From: a virus | Taxonomy: Duplodnaviria; Caudoviricetes | IMG/VR virus record: IMGVR_UViG_2974799246_000001 | Coordinates: 160,001 to 224,000 of that record | Reading direction: 5' to 3' (one strand) | Length of the DNA stretch: 64,000 bases | Shown here: piece after piece, positions 6,428-47,102 of the stretch | Position numbering within the stretch: the first letter of the stretch is position 1 | How the letters are laid out: each line of letters starts with the position of its first letter | Notes under the pieces: model-generated | Database searches by the model: none | Told to the model about the DNA's origin: nothing | Seen by the model: only the letters and a program-made list of their open reading frames with translations | Program-made: the position numbers and the translations under genes

Positions 6428-6937
6428 TTACTCCTTAATCATTTTGACACGCGTGTGGTCGAAGATACCAAACGTAGGCACATCATTGTGCTCACCTTCG
6501 TTACCTTTGATTGAGTCGTACCCAGCAAGTTTGAGTATCTTGCTAATCTCGGTGTACTCATCCCACCACATGTAGACTCGCTTATACTGAGATGCAGGTA
6601 TAAGTTTGTTTAGCGCGTCTAACCTTTTAACGAGAGTCATAGCTTCATCTTTGCCCACCATATGTAACTGGAAGGCTTCCATGATAAGCTGTTTCACTCG
6701 TCTATGAATCTCAGCGAACTTTACTTCCGTCCACAGAGAACGGAACTTCAGGCTGGCGTATCGGCCTGGGTCCGCATGAAATTTGTAGAGGCGCCCACCT
6801 TCCGCATACTTATCGGCATACGCACGATCAGGAGTTACCCAAGTCATGTGTTGCTTTTTAGCATGTTCATCTGACCAGTCTTCTGCAAGACCGCGATAGT
6901 AGATTGTGGGCGCACTCAGGCTGACGAAGACCTGCAA
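6428..6937 (-). CDS. Putative ADP-ribosyltransferase-fold (ART-PolyVal-like) protein with SLS leader
   Basis: YYRG strand, WVTPDRAYADKYA and GYDSI...FGIFD...VK pattern; N-terminus MQVFVSLS. Confidence 0.5.
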   Translation of the reverse strand: MQVFVSLSAPTIYYRGLAEDWSDEHAKKQHMTWVTPDRAYADKYAEGGRLYKFHADPGRYASLKFRSLWTEVKFAEIHRRVKQLIMEAFQLHMVGKDEAMTLVKRLDALNKLIPASQYKRVYMWWDEYTEISKILKLAGYDSIKGNEGEHNDVPTFGIFDHTRVKMIKE

Positions 6938-7904: not shown

Positions 7905-8510
7905 TTATACCAGCGCACGGCCGGGAAGATCGAAGTTTTTACCAGCGGAGTAATCACCCAGCGCTTGGTAGAGAGAGTTACGCAACATCTGTTCGATGAT
8001 ATCGGAGTTATGAGCCGATGCGTCTTTGAATGCGACTTCAATCGAATCAGTTCTCGGATTTACGACAGCGTAACGCAGCGGGCAGATCGTTTGTGCTTCA
8101 CACCAGGCATCAATACGCGGCTGTAAGTCAGGCGTGATTGGGATCTGGAAGTCGGCTAGCGTAAACACTACGCTTTGAATAGGCGGTGGTGCAGACAGCG
8201 AATTGTATTTACCTTTCGTGTCGAGTCGCTCCATGGCCATAGAGGCATCATAGACAGACTGATAACCTTCGCCAACGGTTTTGATATCAGCCATCTTGAA
8301 GCTATGCGTTGACAAGCCTTTGCGAATCAGCTTGGCGATCTTGAGATCGTAATCACCAGAATCGTCAGTAGCAAAGGCAACGAACGCGTAGAAGGAGATC
8401 CCATCAGTTTCGCGCAGCAGACGATGGTCCAACACACGAAAGCCCACGACACTCGAAAGTGCCTGGGCTGTTACCTGAGGCCCCTTAGATAAGGAGACGA
8501 AGATTTGCAT
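7905..8510 (-). CDS. Hypothetical protein with SLS leader (MQIFVSLS)
   Basis: Coupled to the upstream gene by a TAATG overlap. Confidence 0.65.
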   Translation of the reverse strand: MQIFVSLSKGPQVTAQALSSVVGFRVLDHRLLRETDGISFYAFVAFATDDSGDYDLKIAKLIRKGLSTHSFKMADIKTVGEGYQSVYDASMAMERLDTKGKYNSLSAPPPIQSVVFTLADFQIPITPDLQPRIDAWCEAQTICPLRYAVVNPRTDSIEVAFKDASAHNSDIIEQMLRNSLYQALGDYSAGKNFDLPGRALV

Positions 8511-14922: not shown

Positions 14923-15207
14923 TTAGGCAGCCCCTGCGAATACTTTGCGCACCCCGTTATCCAGATAGTGATCTGCGTAGAAGGGTCCATTTTCGTTTTC
15001 AATACCAATGCGCCGACATAGCTGACGACGTAAGCGCCTAGGCCATACCAGCTCATCTTCAATCAGATGAATGACGGCAGGTAGTGCTTCCAGCTGCGTC
15101 ATAGTTAGGTCACGAATCTTGTCGTCAATGCGACACAGCTCCGCATAGTCCTGTTCAGGTGTTGGTACGTTGCGCACAGGCTTAGAAAGATCTACGGTGA
15201 GTTCCAT
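14923..15207 (-). CDS. Hypothetical protein
   Basis: Overlap-coupled ORF. Confidence 0.6.
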   Translation of the reverse strand: MELTVDLSKPVRNVPTPEQDYAELCRIDDKIRDLTMTQLEALPAVIHLIEDELVWPRRLRRQLCRRIGIENENGPFYADHYLDNGVRKVFAGAA

Positions 15208-15653
15208 CAGTATCTCCGTGGCTTCTTAGGTTTCTTGATAGTGGATTTAGGACGCTTGATTGCTCTCAGAGCTTTACGCGCCTCAATAATCTGCTTGGAC
15301 AATTCAGAGCGACGAGCCTTAATCTGGTCCGTGTCCTGCTCAGTGCCTTTGAGTTTATCAAGGCGATTCCATTCTTTGACCAGACGATCAACTACACCAG
15401 CACGAGACACCCGCTGCTGATTGGTACGCACAATGTCCTGCTGCGTCTTCACCGAATCGCGTGTACGATTAACTTCTTCACGCGCTGACTTAACGCCTTT
15501 GGTATCACCCTCAGATTGTTTGTCGTTCAGCTTCTTACGCGCTAACTGCGAGCGGCGTTGTGCTCCCTTGAGATCATCTTTCGAATTGTCCAAGGAGACT
15601 TGAGTATCTTCGAGCGGGCTGGTACGCGCACTCAAACTGATAAGTATCTTCAT
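15207..15653 (-). CDS. Basic coiled-coil protein with SLS leader (MKILISLS)
   Basis: GAGG RBS; leader motif. Confidence 0.65.
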   Translation of the reverse strand: MKILISLSARTSPLEDTQVSLDNSKDDLKGAQRRSQLARKKLNDKQSEGDTKGVKSAREEVNRTRDSVKTQQDIVRTNQQRVSRAGVVDRLVKEWNRLDKLKGTEQDTDQIKARRSELSKQIIEARKALRAIKRPKSTIKKPKKPRRY

Positions 15654-15784: not shown

Positions 15785-16321
15785 TCATGCGGATTGAAGT
15801 TGAAGAATTTCTTCGTCTTCTATATCCGCGCCAGACCACGAACGAATCACGGATGCGTTTCCACGATTGCCTGTCAGCATCATCTTAACTGATGGCTTGG
15901 CATCGCGTTCTGCGTAATAGTCGGCGAGAGCTTTCTCTGTACCGAACCATAAAATGGAGTGACCACCCTTAGGGCAGATCAAGAATTGAGTAGGACGTTG
16001 TGGAACGTTCAACGTCAGATAGAAGTCACCAGCGCCAGTAGGACCAAGCATTGGCATAGGCTTCATGATCTGCTGAAAGTCTCCAGCATCTTTAAGACGT
16101 GTATCGCCCAGCAACCAGATAGCACCTTCTTCTCCCTCACGCACAGCACTCAAGGTACCTTTACGTGTTGTGATAGAGCCAAAAGTGTCTTGATCGAAAC
16201 GGGCTAGACCGAAGATGAGTGATGCGAGTTTCTTCAGGTCAGGGGTCGTGCATGGACTATCAATTTTTGCCATGCCCTCGGACCCTACTGTAATCTTCGA
16301 GAGTGATACAAAGATTTCCAT
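15785..16321 (-). CDS. Hypothetical protein with SLS leader (MEIFVSLS)
   Basis: CTAATTT 37 nt upstream. Confidence 0.65.
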   Translation of the reverse strand: MEIFVSLSKITVGSEGMAKIDSPCTTPDLKKLASLIFGLARFDQDTFGSITTRKGTLSAVREGEEGAIWLLGDTRLKDAGDFQQIMKPMPMLGPTGAGDFYLTLNVPQRPTQFLICPKGGHSILWFGTEKALADYYAERDAKPSVKMMLTGNRGNASVIRSWSGADIEDEEILQLQSA

Positions 16322-39628: not shown

Positions 39629-40885
39629 ATGGCACGTGGATTTGGTGACATTCAGGACAACAGCAAACGTGATAGTCTGCGTGAGTCCGAAATCTTTGAA
39701 ATCTTCCCGCTCTCAAAGAAAGCAAACGGCAACTGGGTATCAATCCGCCTGTTAGATCTCGACCTGCTTCCTATCAAGAAGCACTGGATCAAGATCATGG
39801 GCGGCAAAGACAAAGATAAAGAAATCAAAATCCCGCGCATGTGCGTTAACTTCGATCCGGATAATCAGAACAAACCTCTGAACGGTATGAAGTGTCCGTA
39901 CTGCGGTATTGCACACGGCAACGACGAATCTGGTGCCCCAGCGCAGTACGACTACAAGTGGTATGCGCAAGCGATCATTCGTGACGAGCAGGCCGCTGCG
40001 CCGCGTAAAATGCCGAAGCTCTCTAAGAAAGAGCAGAAGACCGGCAAGAAAGAAATGGGCAGCGAAGCATGGACTCCAGTTCAGTGTATTCCGCTGTCTA
40101 ACTCTCTGGCGCAGAAAATCAAAGAGCTGGGCGAGCGTAACATTCATACCGTGAAAGATAAAAAATCCGGTAAGAAGTCCAAGCAAGCGTTCCAGGTCAA
40201 CCATCCGAAGTATGGCTGCGATATTGAAATCAAATACAACGCCAAGAAATCTCCGGCCGAGCGTTACACAATCGAACGCGGTGATCATACACCACTGACC
40301 AGCGATGAAAAAGAATATCTGACCTGGGACTTCGACAACTGGCCAGAAATCTACGACATGCTCGGCCGTCTGAACGAAGAAGCCGCTATGGCAGACTTCA
40401 AGAAGATGGACGTTATCGGCGTTAACACCAACGATTCTGACGATGGTGACGACGATGAAGATGACGACGACATGGCGCTGGGCCGCAAGAAGAAAGGCGG
40501 CAAGGCAGACAAGAAAAAACGTCGCAGCGATGATGACGATGACGACGATGAGGACGAAGACGATGAAGATGATCGTCCGTCGAAGTCGAAAAAGTCTAAG
40601 CCGACCAAGTCTCGCAAAATGCTGGACGACGATGAAGATGACGACGACGAAGACGATGAAGATGATCGTCCGTCGAAGTCGAAGAAGTCTAAGGACAAAA
40701 AGTCCAAGTCTTCTAAAAAGTCCAAGCGTTCCAGCGACGATGACGACGACGAAGACGACAAGCCTGCGAAGAAGAAAAAGAAATCTTCTGACGAGGTGAA
40801 ATCATCCGATAAGAAGAAAAAGAAAAAGTCTTCTGATGACGATGACGACGACGCGCCGAAGAAGAAAAAGAAAAAGAAAAAGTAA
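39629..40885 (+). CDS. gp32-like single-stranded DNA-binding protein with long D/K-block tail
   Basis: IRLL..HW...C...CPYC core; position next to RecA; charged tail. Confidence 0.65.
   Translation: MARGFGDIQDNSKRDSLRESEIFEIFPLSKKANGNWVSIRLLDLDLLPIKKHWIKIMGGKDKDKEIKIPRMCVNFDPDNQNKPLNGMKCPYCGIAHGNDESGAPAQYDYKWYAQAIIRDEQAAAPRKMPKLSKKEQKTGKKEMGSEAWTPVQCIPLSNSLAQKIKELGERNIHTVKDKKSGKKSKQAFQVNHPKYGCDIEIKYNAKKSPAERYTIERGDHTPLTSDEKEYLTWDFDNWPEIYDMLGRLNEEAAMADFKKMDVIGVNTNDSDDGDDDEDDDDMALGRKKKGGKADKKKRRSDDDDDDDEDEDDEDDRPSKSKKSKPTKSRKMLDDDEDDDDEDDEDDRPSKSKKSKDKKSKSSKKSKRSSDDDDDEDDKPAKKKKKSSDEVKSSDKKKKKKSSDDDDDDAPKKKKKKKK
40553..40683 (+). repeat. 38 bp direct repeat within the SSB tail (40553-40590 and 40646-40683)
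   Basis: GACGAAGACGATGAAGATGATCGTCCGTCGAAGTCGAA twice. Confidence 0.85.
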
Positions 40886-40943
40886 TTCGCAACACGGGGT
40901 AGCTTAGGCTGCCCCTTCTTTTCTCAATCTGGACTATCCCACA

Positions 40944-43475
40944 ATGGCGAAAACGAACAACAAGGCTGAGAAGAAGGCCGAGAAGAAAGCTAAAGTCAAA
41001 GCTCTTAAAAGCGGAGAAAAGGCAGTAGCTTCTGATGATATCGGCGGCGTTGAAATTCAAGGCTTCGACCTCGCAAGTTTGATGGACGATGTGCTTGACG
41101 GCATCGAAAAGAAAACGAAAGTAAGTTCGCAGGATGCAGCACGACACGCACCGCGTATCTCAACAGGCTGTCTGGCGCTTGACATGTATTTGTCTGGCGG
41201 TATCGTACCTGGTGGCTGGTACACATTCAGCGGCGGTGAGCAGTCATGTAAGTCAACAATGACCATGAGCATTATGGCGAGCCTGATTCGTCTGAAATAC
41301 TCTGGCATTAGCGTGGTGTTCGACTACGAAGGTTCAACCGATGCCGAGTACGTTGCTGGTCAGTTGAAAACGTTCGGCGTTAAGGTCGACCCGAAAACTA
41401 TCTTCGGTGTGCGTGACGATAAAGACGGTAGCTGGATCGTTAAGCCCAAGATCCGTTACTACGCACCAGACAACGGTGAGCGCTTCTTCGATTATATGTC
41501 GATGCTGCGTCGTCGTCTGCCTGACAAAATCGTTGAGAAAGACGGCACCGCGTATTACATCTTTGAGAACAACAAAGAGAACGCGAAGAAGCTGGCAGGC
41601 AAGTACGATAAGAAATGGTTCAGCCGTAACAACCAGTTCAAAGTACCTGCGCCAGACGGTCACATGCAGGCGATGGTTATCGTTGACTCCTATCCTGCGA
41701 TGATGCCAGATCAGGTCGATGACGATGACGGCTCGAAAGCAATGGCGCTGCAAGCGCGTATGTTCTCTGACGGCATCAAACGTTTCCGTGGCGGTATGCG
41801 TCGTAAGATGATGACTATCGTTGGCGTTAACCAGTTGCGTCAGAAGCCCGCAGTAATGTTCGGCAGCCCTGAGTATGAGCCTGGTGGTGATGCGTTGAAG
41901 TTCTATTGCTTCGACCGTGACACTCTGATTCGTACTGACCACGGCGTGTTGACTGCACCGCAGATCAAAGCGCTGATGGACGAAGGCAAAGAAGTTGCCG
42001 TTGAGTCGTTCGATGGTTATCAGAAAATCAATGGTGCGTGGCAGGTTGAAGACGCTCCGTTCCCGTTCGAACTGAATGCTGGTGGTCATGTGTATGTCGG
42101 CTCGGCCGAACATCGCCAGTTCACGTTCATGCACGATCTGACTGCCGAAGGTACTCCAGTTCTGCGTCCTGAATGGAACACGCTGAATCAACTGGCTCAG
42201 TACCCAGAGCAGAAAGGTCAGTACGCTGGTCTGCGTGTACCACCAGTTAAGGAACTGAAAGAGAATGTTCCTGACGCCTTCGATGAAGCCTCACAACTGG
42301 TAAGCAATCTGCTTGGAAACTGTGACCCTGTTAGCAAGCAACTGCCTCTGGTGACTCATGGTGATACCACCTACGCCGCAAACTGTCTGTTCATCGACAC
42401 TGTGGGCGAAGACACCGACACTGGTTCGTTCTCGTTCTGGGTAGAGAAGTTACTGGCCATCGGCGTATTTGCTTACGCTGACGAAAGCGGTATCTGGATT
42501 CCAGGTCTGAACAAACACGAACTGGAAGCGGCTGTAGCGCAGGACGAACTCGGTGCGTTTGCTGGTATCAGTTTTGAAGCGACCTGTCGTCAACGTCAGA
42601 CTCAAATGCTGACCGTGATTGTTGATCACTTCCCAGAGCTGGTGCGTTACGTTCTGGACTATCAGTTGCAGACAGGTGAAGATAAAATCTATCTGGCTCC
42701 TGAGCAGGACTTCGCACAGGCGCTTGACCTGATTCTGCACAAAGAGATCGCTGACTACGATGACATGTACGACCTGCTGATGTTCCAGCTGGCGTATGTC
42801 GATGACTGGTACAACTTCGACTCTGCAATTCTGCCTGTGCCGTTTACGCTTCGTGCGCTCAACGAACAGCGTGAGTTCTGGGACGTGAACGTTGAAGAAA
42901 CGTCGGTAGTAATCACCAACGGCTTCGTCAGTCACAACAGCGACGTGCGTGTGCGTCTGGCTTCTCGTGCGGTACCAGAAGGCTGGCCGAAACTGAAAGA
43001 TGCTCCTGGCATCGTCGGTGAGAAGTCGGTAACAGTTGAAGGCGGTACTGACCGCTATCGCTTCATCGCTGCTAAGACCATTAAGAACAAGATGGGCGGC
43101 ATCCCTAACCAGCAGACGTGGTTACGTTTGTGGGAAGCTGACGGTAACGGTGAAGCTCGCGGCTTCGACCCAGTGTTCGATACGTGGCACTACCTGAAAA
43201 CTCTGGGTCTGGTCAACGGTAGCCGTAAGTCTTTCAAGCTGAAAGCGCCGTGCCCGCTCGCATCTGATGTTAAGATGGATTGGGATGACTTCCGTACACT
43301 CATCAACGGCAGCAAAGAGCAAGTTGTTGGCGTGTGTAAGAAACTGAAAGTCAAACCTGCTGGCCTGCGTCTGTGGTGCTTCAAGTTCGTTCAGTCCACT
43401 AAGGGCAACGAAATGTTGAAGAACGCAATCAGTAAGTCTGCCAAGAAGTCTGATGACGACGACGGCGACGAGTAA
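40944..43475 (+). CDS. recA: RecA/UvsX recombinase containing an intein
   Basis: ISTG.LALD..L.GG, GGEQSCKST, IVDS, NQLR, PGGDALKFY|S.VR and KNK. Confidence 0.9.
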   Translation: MAKTNNKAEKKAEKKAKVKALKSGEKAVASDDIGGVEIQGFDLASLMDDVLDGIEKKTKVSSQDAARHAPRISTGCLALDMYLSGGIVPGGWYTFSGGEQSCKSTMTMSIMASLIRLKYSGISVVFDYEGSTDAEYVAGQLKTFGVKVDPKTIFGVRDDKDGSWIVKPKIRYYAPDNGERFFDYMSMLRRRLPDKIVEKDGTAYYIFENNKENAKKLAGKYDKKWFSRNNQFKVPAPDGHMQAMVIVDSYPAMMPDQVDDDDGSKAMALQARMFSDGIKRFRGGMRRKMMTIVGVNQLRQKPAVMFGSPEYEPGGDALKFYCFDRDTLIRTDHGVLTAPQIKALMDEGKEVAVESFDGYQKINGAWQVEDAPFPFELNAGGHVYVGSAEHRQFTFMHDLTAEGTPVLRPEWNTLNQLAQYPEQKGQYAGLRVPPVKELKENVPDAFDEASQLVSNLLGNCDPVSKQLPLVTHGDTTYAANCLFIDTVGEDTDTGSFSFWVEKLLAIGVFAYADESGIWIPGLNKHELEAAVAQDELGAFAGISFEATCRQRQTQMLTVIVDHFPELVRYVLDYQLQTGEDKIYLAPEQDFAQALDLILHKEIADYDDMYDLLMFQLAYVDDWYNFDSAILPVPFTLRALNEQREFWDVNVEETSVVITNGFVSHNSDVRVRLASRAVPEGWPKLKDAPGIVGEKSVTVEGGTDRYRFIAAKTIKNKMGGIPNQQTWLRLWEADGNGEARGFDPVFDTWHYLKTLGLVNGSRKSFKLKAPCPLASDVKMDWDDFRTLINGSKEQVVGVCKKLKVKPAGLRLWCFKFVQSTKGNEMLKNAISKSAKKSDDDDGDE
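41907..42938 (+). mobile_element. Intein (344 aa) in RecA
   Basis: Starts CFDRDTLI and ends NGFVSHN, followed by Ser; block B-like SAEHR; removal restores LKFYS.VR. Confidence 0.9.
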
Positions 43476-43517
43476 TAAATAGGCGGGCTTCGGCTCGCCC
43501 TTTCTCTGGAGAAAGAA

Positions 43518-43946
43518 ATGCGCACTCAAATCTATACGGCTGATATCGTCAATCTGGAAACAGTGGTCGTTGACGAAGAAGGCCAAGAGACACGCAGTCC
43601 GACAATCGTTCCTAATCTCGAAGGCGAACGTGATCTGACTGTTAGCACTCTCGGTACTATCATGGCTACCGTGACCGCTGAACCAAATCCTGACGCTCGC
43701 ATGATCGTTTTGGTGTCTCGCGCCCTGTTCCCTGCTTTCGCAGACCCTGAAGGTGACCTGTTCGATATCTTCGATCCAATCGAACGCGTTGCTGATGTTG
43801 TTGCTGGAAACGTTGGCAGCATTCTCGGTATGCAGGTAGTAATCAACGATAAGTCCGACGACAACGTTCTGGCTATCGCTGATGTTCTCGATAACGAAGC
43901 TGGCGTTACTATTCGCACCTTCGGCGCTGCGCTCGTTCGCGCGTAA
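43518..43946 (+). CDS. Hypothetical protein
   Basis: GGAG RBS. Confidence 0.65.
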   Translation: MRTQIYTADIVNLETVVVDEEGQETRSPTIVPNLEGERDLTVSTLGTIMATVTAEPNPDARMIVLVSRALFPAFADPEGDLFDIFDPIERVADVVAGNVGSILGMQVVINDKSDDNVLAIADVLDNEAGVTIRTFGAALVRA

Positions 43947-43987
43947 GTAAACTTGTGCGGGAAAGCATTATCCCGCACAATCCCTCT

Positions 43988-44040
43988 CTCGATAGGCAAT
44001 ACGCCACGAGAAAACAAATCACTCGATAGGCAATACGCCA
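43988..44040 (+). repeat. 19 bp direct repeat CTCGATAGGCAATACGCCA x2 with a 15 bp spacer
   Basis: Copies at 43988-44006 and 44022-44040. Confidence 0.9.
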
Positions 44041-44050
44041 GGAGTAATGT

Positions 44051-44752
44051 ATGAAAAAGATTCAACACGTAACACTTCCGACCGATGCACTCAACGGACT
44101 CATTCACGGTTATTACCACCACAGCAAAACCACTGATGAATTTTGCAGATCGTTGATCTATATTGACGTGACCGCCCGCAGCGCCTCAGATGCGCTGTAT
44201 GCTATATTGAAACGTGAGCCGACAAAAGGCATTGTCCCTATGGGATATGATTGCTTACGAGAAGCACGTGGGCACACTGCTCCAGCACAACTCGCAATCG
44301 TATTGTCCAGCAACCTGTTGCATATAGATAATACGAAGATGGCCAGAGGCGTACAGGCCATCTTTAATGCTCTGGCCATAACCACGCACACAAACGATAC
44401 TCAAATAACTGTGTACGGCGAGCCTGGAGTAAGTAAGATTCTCAACATAATGCGCGACATTCAATATAAAGAATATATTAACGCGCCTGAATCCGACATT
44501 GTGCTTGGCGACTTTAACCTTGAGTCGAACATGACTATAGACCATTTCGTTCACATGGCTATCGATCCTAAGTTCGAAGAAGCTATTCGCAATTCTCCTG
44601 CCACAGAATTTAAACTGGGCAGCAGTTTCATGTTCATGCACCCAGATGAATTGGCTAAGGTTGTACGCATGGTCCGCCGTTGCAGTAAAATCTGCATCAT
44701 GCACCCTGACATTCATCGCTATTACTTTGAGAACGTAATCTGTAAATACTAA
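44051..44752 (+). CDS. Hypothetical protein, paralog of 45902-46669
   Basis: Shared QH..P, RSL, G..F...H.D.L and H.D..R..FE. Confidence 0.6.
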   Translation: MKKIQHVTLPTDALNGLIHGYYHHSKTTDEFCRSLIYIDVTARSASDALYAILKREPTKGIVPMGYDCLREARGHTAPAQLAIVLSSNLLHIDNTKMARGVQAIFNALAITTHTNDTQITVYGEPGVSKILNIMRDIQYKEYINAPESDIVLGDFNLESNMTIDHFVHMAIDPKFEEAIRNSPATEFKLGSSFMFMHPDELAKVVRMVRRCSKICIMHPDIHRYYFENVICKY

Positions 44753-44854
44753 TCACCAAACCGAACACATTGCTGTGTGTAGTCTAGCCCGACTTGGGCA
44801 GGGGAGAGCCGGATGGCCTCCCCATTTTTTTATCTACACGCTGCGGAGAACAGT

Positions 44855-45856
44855 ATGTCTAAAACGAAGTCAACGCCACAGACCTTTCTCGATCTATTCC
44901 TAAAAGACGTTAAGCTCTTTCTGCCTAGATTCGACAAAGGGCTGGACGCGTACTTATTAAAGTGCAAAGGCAAGCCGGGTCCTTATGGTGTATCGCTTCA
45001 TCAATACATGAAGTGGCTAAATCCTGTAGCGCGACTTCCTGCCAACGCAAGCGAAGTGTCTATCATCACATCAGGCTACCTGCATTACTTTTGGCAGCTC
45101 GCTAAACCTAACTTTGTGTTGGAGCCTGTGCTTGTCAATCACTTGGTTGAGTCTGTGTTGCCAGACGAACTCCCGGCTGAGATTCTTCAACGTCTGCCTT
45201 ACTGGAGTCAGTGGATTACGTTGCCTCTACATCTGATAAGCAAAGACAATATTCTGGATCTGGACTTCGATGGTGCTTTCGTTGGGTATACATCAATCGA
45301 CAACAGACCTGCGCTTGTCCTTGCTGCGCCGTTTGTCTCCAACAATCAAAGCATTCGTTCGAACGACTTCACGCCGTTCGTTACATCTCATGTGTTTCTG
45401 GATGCTCCTGTACGTCCAGAGTTTTTGGTGAGGAACAGTCACATCCTTAACGTTGCCTCTGACGCAATGAGCAAAGAAGCCTACGCAACACTGATAATCA
45501 ACATTCACCACTTCTTGGTGAAAGTGATCAACTGTGTCATGTATATCTGCTCTCAACAGGAAGCATTGTATCAGGAAGGTCATTCTCAACCTAAGCCTCA
45601 GCGTTTAGGTAAGAGCTATCGCATCACGCCACCGAAAGATGATCGCATGATCACGGTAGGCGCCGAGATGACCAGGATTCTCAAAGACTTCGAAGCAGAA
45701 GTCGAAGCGTGTACTCGCGCTTTCAATGGGCGTAAGCCGCATATACGAAAAGCGCACTACCACCACTTCTGGACAGGACCGAAAGTAGGAGTTCGTAGCC
45801 TTGTCTGCAAGTGGTTGCCACCAAGTATTGTTCGCGGCACTATCGTAGAGCAATAA
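44855..45856 (+). CDS. AcrVA2/FinQ-family-like protein
   Basis: LPDELP.EIL.RLP.W, MYIC and C-terminal KPHIRKAHYHHFWTG...KW.P..V match recalled AcrVA2 motifs. Confidence 0.65.
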   Translation: MSKTKSTPQTFLDLFLKDVKLFLPRFDKGLDAYLLKCKGKPGPYGVSLHQYMKWLNPVARLPANASEVSIITSGYLHYFWQLAKPNFVLEPVLVNHLVESVLPDELPAEILQRLPYWSQWITLPLHLISKDNILDLDFDGAFVGYTSIDNRPALVLAAPFVSNNQSIRSNDFTPFVTSHVFLDAPVRPEFLVRNSHILNVASDAMSKEAYATLIINIHHFLVKVINCVMYICSQQEALYQEGHSQPKPQRLGKSYRITPPKDDRMITVGAEMTRILKDFEAEVEACTRAFNGRKPHIRKAHYHHFWTGPKVGVRSLVCKWLPPSIVRGTIVEQ

Positions 45857-45901
45857 CTTTTATCTCAACTCCACGTATGGGCGTTATGCCCGGAGACTAT
45901 T

Positions 45902-46669
45902 ATGAAATCTCGTGTACAACATGCGTATATTCCTGATATGGAATCGTTTGACCCTTACGTCCGTTCTCTGTGCCATATGGCGCGAGCACTGGACACATCG
46001 AATGCTAACTACGGTAAACTGAAACGTGTCGTGATAATCGGCACTTCGAAGCGCGTGGTCGAAGCCTACGTTAAGCAGTTACTCAACACAAACAACCTGC
46101 CGCACACTCTCATTTGCTTTGGCGTAGACGAACCGCCTATCAGTCACCGCGATTATACCTACGCTGGCGCCCACGTTGTGCTGATGCACGACCTGACCTA
46201 CGTTGATAGCGGTACGATGGGCAAAGTCGCCACGCGTGTGATTGAAATCATCGACAGCCTCAAACAGAAGCCTGGCGAAACAGAACTTAAAAATTCCGAG
46301 CTGTCTATGGTGTATTCGAATCCTCTGCTGTGGCGATCCATTATCGACTACGGTGCTTCCGTTTCTCTGCGCATGAATGGCAGCAACATTGAATACCGTA
46401 GCGGTCTGGTGTCGTCTATTGGCTTCGATGCGTTGCTGCGTTGTGAAAGCAATGCAGACTACCATGAACTTCGCGCTGATACGATTACGATCGGTCTGGA
46501 GTTCTTCTGCGTACACACGGACTACCTGCTGTCAAAAGTACACAACCTGCTGTGGTCACTTGCATGTGATGATTGCAAGTTCAAAAAGACGCACCGTATT
46601 ATCTTCCATGAAGACTTCCGACGCTTATTCTTCGAAGAATATCTCTTGAGGGACTTCCAGGGCTTTTAA
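45902..46669 (+). CDS. Hypothetical protein, paralog of 44051-44752
   Basis: Shared motifs; GGAG RBS. Confidence 0.6.
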   Translation: MKSRVQHAYIPDMESFDPYVRSLCHMARALDTSNANYGKLKRVVIIGTSKRVVEAYVKQLLNTNNLPHTLICFGVDEPPISHRDYTYAGAHVVLMHDLTYVDSGTMGKVATRVIEIIDSLKQKPGETELKNSELSMVYSNPLLWRSIIDYGASVSLRMNGSNIEYRSGLVSSIGFDALLRCESNADYHELRADTITIGLEFFCVHTDYLLSKVHNLLWSLACDDCKFKKTHRIIFHEDFRRLFFEEYLLRDFQGF

Positions 46670-46742
46670 GATTATTCTTAGCCTGCTCTCTAATTTCAAT
46701 ATGTTGGCAAGTAGTGCTGACATATCGTTATTGGAGAATAAC

Positions 46743-47003
46743 ATGTGCGAACGTAGCCATTTGCGGTTGAAGTACCTCGCACGGTCATCTGGCTGGTGCA
46801 ATAATAAAGTAAACGCTTGTAGTGAGCGGAAGGCGAAGAATGTACAATGCGAAGAATTTTTGGCAGCGACCAAAGATTGCCGCAGCGAACAGAAGTCGTC
46901 CAGTGTTGTTTCATTCTTCAAAGGTCATGAGCTGGTTGGTCAGGCTATATGGCATGAGATAGAGGGAGACAGCACACTTCAATTCCGGTTGCTACTTGCT
47001 TAA
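46743..47003 (+). CDS. Hypothetical protein
   Basis: GGAG RBS; CTAATTT at 46690. Confidence 0.45.
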   Translation: MCERSHLRLKYLARSSGWCNNKVNACSERKAKNVQCEEFLAATKDCRSEQKSSSVVSFFKGHELVGQAIWHEIEGDSTLQFRLLLA

Positions 47004-47102
47004 CGACAGAGGGCCTTTCAGAGTAATATCTGGTGGGCCCTTTCTTCTTTCTATGCTAATTTTGCCTGTCACTAACACACCAACCGACTTCGGGGTATCA
47101 CT

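Follow-up and report, generated by a model that had tools for sequence, protein, structure and literature searches.

The AcrVA2-like gene, its leader and its genomic slot

An open reading frame at positions 44855-45856 (+) of the window (the whole 64,000-nucleotide stretch analysed here, which spans 160001-224000 in a virus record of 265,146 bp) was found to give a stop-free translation of 333 aa in the list of open reading frames. The encoded protein is almost certainly a member of the AcrVA2/FinQ family, and a single intact copy of the gene is present in the 265,146-bp record. The features of the gene and of the DNA in front of it are the following.

44801..44831 (+): terminator-like hairpin of 9 bp with one bulge and a GGAT loop, followed by A and T7 (sequence, ViennaRNA)
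44845..44850 (+): ribosome-binding site GGAGAA, 4 nt 5' of ATG 44855 (read from the sequence)
44855..45856 (+): coding sequence of the AcrVA2/FinQ-family protein, 333 aa plus stop (open reading frame and translation; phrog_6160, 4e-48; 7CI1 profile, E 2.7e-47; VIA-align, Z 19.6)
44855..45589 (+): variable part, codons 1-245, with the N-terminal helices and the middle alpha/beta domain; presumed target-recognition module
45092-45094 (+): W80, identical to AcrVA2 W79 (alignments)
45122-45124 (+): E90, a conservative replacement of AcrVA2 D89 (alignments)
45158-45205 (+): LPDELPAEILQRLPYW block, within the variable part
45536-45550 (+): VMYIC, within the variable part
45590..45853 (+): conserved C-terminal module, codons 246-333; presumed effector part
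45740..45772 (+): HxR...H signature, H296-I-R298-K-A-H301-Y-H303-H304-F-W306, aligned to AcrVA2 H286/R288/H291

The true start appears to be ATG 44855, and a longer reading from ATG 44813 is considered unlikely since the latter lies within the loop of the terminator-like hairpin, GGAGAA precedes 44855 and the RefSeq start of a 96%-identical homolog (YP_010300011.1, labelled 'hypothetical protein') is the same as ATG 44855. The hairpin is located directly 5' of the gene. ViennaRNA folds show that a terminator-like hairpin and T-run are kept before the AcrVA2-like gene in every allele and genus examined, with a different stem sequence in Yoloswagvirus and Rivsvirus. The hairpin at 44801-44831 was not among the elements listed by a consensus scan. 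The gene may be expressed by read-through of this upstream hairpin. In addition, the leader as a whole (44753-44854) was observed to hold three hairpins, namely ACACA/TGTGT, GCCC/GGGC and GGGGAGAGCC/GGCCTCCCC, the last followed by T7, and a possible outer stem, GTGTAG/CTACAC, encloses all three with an MFE of -38.6 kcal/mol over 105 nt.

Positions 40000-50000 of the window are ~97% identical to the Erwinia amylovora jumbo phages pEa_SNUABM_16, 18 and 28 (Alexandravirus), and the window phage is, as judged from its sequence, an Erwinia-infecting Alexandravirus jumbo phage. Its closest phage relatives have E. amylovora and Dickeya solani as hosts. The AcrVA2-like gene is located in a run of genes in the order RNA ligase, sigma factor, SSB, UvsX, one or two small genes, AcrVA2-like gene and a gene for 255 aa, and this order was found to be kept in Alexandravirus, Sasquatchvirus (Y3) and Yoloswagvirus. 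In Rivsvirus the gene lies just downstream of uvsX, and in Erskinevirus and Seoulvirus a homolog is found two genes from uvsX. Salmondvirus JA13, RisingSun and Klebsiella FBKp24 carry it elsewhere, away from the uvsX slot. An AcrVA2-like gene was found in every related jumbo phage examined. The neighbours orf233 and orf255 were considered as paralogs or partners and rejected as such, as they have no significant mutual similarity and no family matches; orf233 is missing in pEa_SNUABM_40.

Two further observations concern the copies outside the slot. In JA13 (L007:6854-8478) the AcrVA2-like gene extends 4 nt into the start of a gene annotated as a (p)ppGpp synthetase/hydrolase-like protein. In RisingSun the homolog gp126 (L030:2764-3765) is annotated as 'putative mycothiosynthase', which looks like a mis-annotation because the protein gives a tblastn match of E 2e-20 to this AcrVA2-family protein.

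The UvsX/RecA-like recombinase upstream (40944-43475, +) has 843 aa and includes an insert of 344 aa at 41907-42938, which sits between ALKFY and SDVRVRL. The first residue of the insert is Cys322 and the last are His-Asn665, followed by Ser, and these ends (Cys ... His-Asn, Ser) constitute an intein signature. The RecA family of Pfam matches this UvsX in two separate stretches, and the search gave no intein family at E 0.001 or better. A long UvsX (~830-843 aa) is common to the Alexandra-, Sasquatch- and Yoloswagvirus relatives, and the UvsX of Asesino and SaP7 has ~495 aa.

Family membership and fold

AcrVA2 is an anti-CRISPR of a Moraxella bovoculi prophage, and FinQ is a fertility inhibitor of IncI1 and related plasmids. 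The earlier note had placed the protein in their family from short motifs, and the placement was borne out by sequence profiles, by the fold and by the catalytic-motif residues. A phmmer search with the single sequence matched AcrVA2 (PDB 7CI1) at E 8.3e-5, with residues 66-326 aligned to 66-316. An 11-sequence profile of close homologs matched the same chain at E 3.7e-17 and a 129-sequence profile of diverse homologs at E 2.7e-47 (positions 10-325 against chain positions 7-319), where the latter profile had no match in the PDB besides AcrVA2. The similarity to AcrVA2 is confirmed to be full-length and well beyond chance at an identity of ~15%, and it is not confined to the short C-terminal motif. 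The claim of homology stands because the profile matches extend outside this motif.

FinQ of IncI plasmids was matched to the window protein by tblastn at E 4e-4 (residues 79-323, ~23% identity) and to the family profile by hhalign at E 1.6e-38 with a probability of 99.95%, so the comparison with AcrVA2 and FinQ proposed earlier gave matches to both. As annotated, FinQ has 259 aa and is without the first ~95 residues' worth of the family profile. Its coding sequence in the Escherichia coli IncI1 plasmid NZ_CP135648 (L029:401-1222) covers only profile columns 96-336, and the annotated start is located 42 nt downstream of the start of the tblastn match. Either FinQ would lack the N-terminal part of the family or its start would be annotated too far downstream.

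The orthologous group phrog_6160 matches the window protein at 4e-48, nearly end to end, and the precomputed Pfam family PF26125 was present on all homologs found. Searches of Pfam (in a copy without PF26125), NCBIfam and PADLOC returned no match for the window protein, and the empty Pfam result is explained by the absence of PF26125 from the copy used. The family profile matches 3,937 clusters at 50% identity, and 82 phage records in all match the window protein.

An AlphaFold (AF2) model built on a deep alignment has a mean pLDDT of 92.1. Foldseek matched this model to 7CI1 and 7CI2 alone (E 4e-11 to 7e-12, TM 0.59-0.62), with nothing else below E 0.1. An exhaustive VIA-align comparison gave AcrVA2 at Z 19.6 with an rmsd of 4.4 over 273/296 residues, and the next best chain was at Z 5.7. 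The fold of 7CI1, which consists of N-terminal helices, a middle alpha/beta domain and a small C-terminal beta domain, is present in the model. The middle domain forms an alpha/beta wrap with weak similarity to Der p 7, BPI and Aha1 (VIA-align Z 4-6). An enzyme-like fold was also considered for the C-terminal module and rejected, as only small ribosomal-protein-like chains were retrieved at Z < 4 and these were judged to be unreliable.

Conserved residues and variable alleles

The three motifs quoted in the earlier note are all present, namely LPDELPAEILQRLPYW at residues 102-117, VMYIC at 228-232 and RKPHIRKAHYHHFWTG...KWLP at 293-322, and they form the three best-conserved blocks of the 129-sequence family alignment. 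Nearly invariant residues among the 129 homologs are W80, P107, L114, P115, G140, L154, Y230, C232 and G269, together with H296, R298, H301, H303, W306, G308, W320 and P323 in the C-terminal part. H301 is invariant, and W80, Y230, C232, H296, R298, H303 and W306 were observed to be at least 90% conserved. Furthermore, H296-x-R298...H301-x-H303 and W306 are kept in 7/7 jumbo-phage alleles. In the alignments AcrVA2 H286 corresponds to H296, R288 to R298 and H291 to H301, after a correction of the mapping for the PDB chain numbering, which is offset by one from the native AcrVA2 numbering.

These positions coincide with residues required in AcrVA2. Alanine mutants of H286, R288 and H291 lose activity and retain binding, and mutations of W79 and D89 cause a moderate loss of function (Marino et al., bioRxiv 10.1101/2022.11.29.518452, preprint). 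A protein that inactivates or sequesters its mature target directly as a stoichiometric binder, with the mRNA unaffected, would agree with the binding of AcrVA2 to mature apo-Cas12a and to a Cas12a peptide in crystal 7CI2 (Marino et al.; 2026 review), and with the weak resemblance of the middle domain to ligand- and peptide-binding folds such as Der p 7, BPI and Aha1. Against it, binding by AcrVA2 is not enough to inhibit Cas12a in vitro (Marino et al.), and the C-terminal HxR...H of AcrVA2 is dispensable for binding and essential for activity. The HxR...H residues are all kept in the window protein, which argues for an activity beyond binding, and we regard a pure binder as improbable.

Outside these blocks the protein was found to be highly variable among close relatives. 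The UvsX proteins of the window phage, AD1 and pEa_SNUABM_40 share 88-94% identity. The AcrVA2-like proteins of the window phage and AD1 are 75% identical, and either of them is only 33-34% identical to that of pEa_SNUABM_40, which is about as distant within the genus as alleles from other genera. Between phage alleles, residues 121-200 are 14-19% identical and residues 201-245 are 16-33% identical, and the last 43 residues (291-333) are 49-98% identical among jumbo-phage alleles. The slot is conserved and its content hypervariable, as would be expected of conflict genes.

Synonymous divergence was observed to follow the same division. In comparisons with AD1, SNU1 and SNU30, dS is 0.07-0.45 for codons 246-333 and ranges from at least 0.9 up to saturation for codons 1-245. 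This indicates that recombination has made the gene a mosaic, with its junction near codon 245, because dS is low in the rear part and saturated in the front part. Pairwise dN/dS is 0.08-0.19 in close pairs, with no sign of positive selection in them; values of this size mean purifying selection and hence a functional gene. A variable front and a constant rear fit the pattern that would be predicted by a model of separate recognition and effector parts, and fall short of proof.

Proposed mode of action and comparison with known systems

AcrVA2 binds the N-terminal polypeptide of Cas12a at its LSKT motif and lowers Cas12a mRNA and protein more than ten-fold, whichever promoter or codon sequence is used (Marino et al., bioRxiv 10.1101/2022.11.29.518452). 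The same preprint identified FinQ as an AcrVA2 homolog that appeared to lower the mRNA of F transfer genes, and reported that AcrVA2 homologs are widespread on mobile elements of many kinds, megaphages among them, and that Cas12a is typically lacking there. Functional evidence on the family comprises the action of AcrVA2 on Cas12a and the old FinQ genetics. That AcrVA2 homologs may act on targets other than Cas12a was already proposed there, so this hypothesis is not new; Erwinia phage proteins are not among the entries in the accessible part of the supplement.

Starting from the homology, the fold, the retained essential residues, the purifying selection and the variable/conserved split demonstrated for the window protein, we propose the following mode of action. 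The variable N-terminal and middle domains would most likely bind one specific non-Cas12a protein, probably as its chain emerges during translation, and the conserved C-terminal module (H296-x-R298...H301-x-H303) would then bring about loss of the target mRNA, so that the target is no longer made during infection. Nascent-chain binding and mRNA decay are carried over from AcrVA2, and the target could belong to a host defence, to a rival mobile element or to other host factors. Silencing of a non-Cas12a target by the window protein is plausible, and we put the whole statement, that a full-length AcrVA2/FinQ protein of an Erwinia Alexandravirus jumbo phage silences a non-Cas12a protein via translation-coupled mRNA loss, at a probability of roughly 0.6. 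The mechanism of AcrVA2 may have drifted in the window protein, because the identity between them is only ~15%. The earlier note had suggested a defence gene as the target; we observed nothing that specifically favours a host defence gene over a rival element or over housekeeping targets in phage or host.

A true anti-Cas12a protein, retained for the occasional host that has a type V-A system, would agree with the homology to AcrVA2 as the founding anti-Cas12a member and with the presence of Glu99 and Asp131 at AcrVA2 E98 and D129 of the 620-636 peptide interface, where the pairwise alignment has low confidence. Such a role is opposed by the low identity to AcrVA2 with the recognition region as its most divergent portion, by the occurrence of most family members without Cas12a (Marino et al.), and by the hosts of the nearest phages, E. 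amylovora and D. solani. The CRISPR systems of E. amylovora are described as type I-E with a type I-F remnant, and Cas12 or type V is not mentioned (PMC9004355). Cas12a is an unlikely target because of this description, and we give an anti-Cas12a function very little credence.

Four otherwise unrelated proteins in the window, all on the minus strand (6428-6937, 7905-8510, 15207-15653 and 15785-16321), were noticed to share an N-terminal tag, M/L-x-[IV]-[FL]-[VI]-S-L-S-[AK]. Exactly four copies occur in the genome and none in a reversed-pattern control. The copies use TCN or AGY codons for Ser and several codons for Leu and have unrelated upstream DNA, which shows that the tag is selected at the peptide level. 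It also occurs in pEa_SNUABM_40, Y3, AD1 and JA13, and it is missing from five other jumbo phages with an AcrVA2-like gene (RisingSun, FBKp24, Asesino, SaP7 and pEa_SNUABM_5); Rivsvirus, where the gene occupies the same slot, is represented among these five. The tag is unchanged among the relatives carrying it while the recognition domain varies. We considered whether the window protein reads this tag, by comparison with the reading of N-terminal LSKT by AcrVA2, and rejected the idea as scarcely credible, given the absence of the tag from five carriers and its invariance.

The gene could also serve the phage's own programme, in a stage-specific shut-off of phage or host housekeeping messages that would be the translation-coupled counterpart of the T4 RegB-type shut-off of early mRNA. 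In Alexandra-, Sasquatch-, Yoloswag-, Rivs-, Erskine- and Seoulvirus the slot is surrounded by genes for replication and recombination, at a distance of one to three genes from uvsX. This near-core position, held in at least six genera of jumbo phages, could indicate a phage-internal role over counter-defence. Its presence in every related jumbo phage examined and the purifying selection on it are in line with such a role. Furthermore, a lytic phage would deplete a pre-existing defence protein only slowly by preventing its synthesis. A strictly lytic phage also has less to gain than a prophage or plasmid when new synthesis of an already present protein is blocked, and this is a point against the silencing of a defence target. 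However, a housekeeping regulator whose target is fixed would not usually diverge so fast or have its alleles replaced in near-identical genomes, and the candidate regulon, the four tag proteins, accompanies the gene in one subgroup only. We therefore hold a phage-internal programme to be rather unlikely. Together with the binder and the anti-Cas12a function, it ranks below the silencing of a non-Cas12a protein by translation-coupled mRNA loss.

A more speculative extension of that silencing, which we offer only tentatively, is that the jumbo-phage branch constitutes a naturally retargetable reader of nascent proteins, in which a constant decay module is combined with interchangeable recognition modules and related phages silence different proteins. 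As examples, the breakpoint at codon 245 and the whole-allele replacement in phages with 90-94% identical UvsX are of the kind that such a reader would produce. If this were true, the proteins silenced, whether of the host or of a rival element and induced during infection, would differ among closely related Erwinia and Dickeya phages, and the Alexandravirus allelic series would offer an experimental system, already at hand, in which to look for targets of the AcrVA2 mechanism outside CRISPR.

Previous publications already cover the family with its fold and signature residues, its occurrence in huge phages and the usual lack of Cas12a. New here are the firm annotation and a series of hypervariable alleles with a recombination junction inside the gene, in a phage and host that are experimentally tractable. 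GenBank and RefSeq still list the genes of the Erwinia and Dickeya jumbo phages as 'hypothetical protein', and the finding mainly corrects this label in several dozen jumbo-phage records; it does not describe a new kind of system. The mechanism of AcrVA2, in which recognition of a growing chain leads to destruction of its mRNA, has been demonstrated for Cas12a only, in a family that is very large. E. amylovora and its Alexandravirus phages are culturable and the phages carry very different alleles in almost identical genomes, and a comparison of these alleles could reveal the first non-CRISPR targets.

Compared with known systems, the window protein resembles AcrVA2 in its length class, in the three-part fold over the whole chain (Z 19.6), in the conserved blocks LP..W, LY.C and RPHIR..H.H..W.G...W.P, in the activity residues (W, acidic, HxR and H) and in its location on a mobile element. 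It differs in the ~15% identity, with strongly diverged middle and N-terminal parts, and in its setting, as AcrVA2 is found in a prophage whereas the window protein is encoded by a lytic 265-kb jumbo phage with no adjoining AcrVA1-like gene and a host lineage without reported Cas12a. FinQ is a clear homolog and a non-CRISPR member of the family, but it is encoded on plasmids and directed against a rival plasmid. AcrVA2-like proteins have been noted in huge phages (Al-Shayeb et al. 2020, PMC7162821), and ORF43 of Shewanella phage vB_SbaS_Y11 is AcrVA2-like by annotation only, where the relative S. xiamenensis has a type I-E system (PMC10846135). These proteins are likewise phage-encoded in hosts without evident Cas12a. 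Whereas those reports consist of annotations only, the Erwinia and Dickeya genes form a syntenic, hypervariable allelic series.
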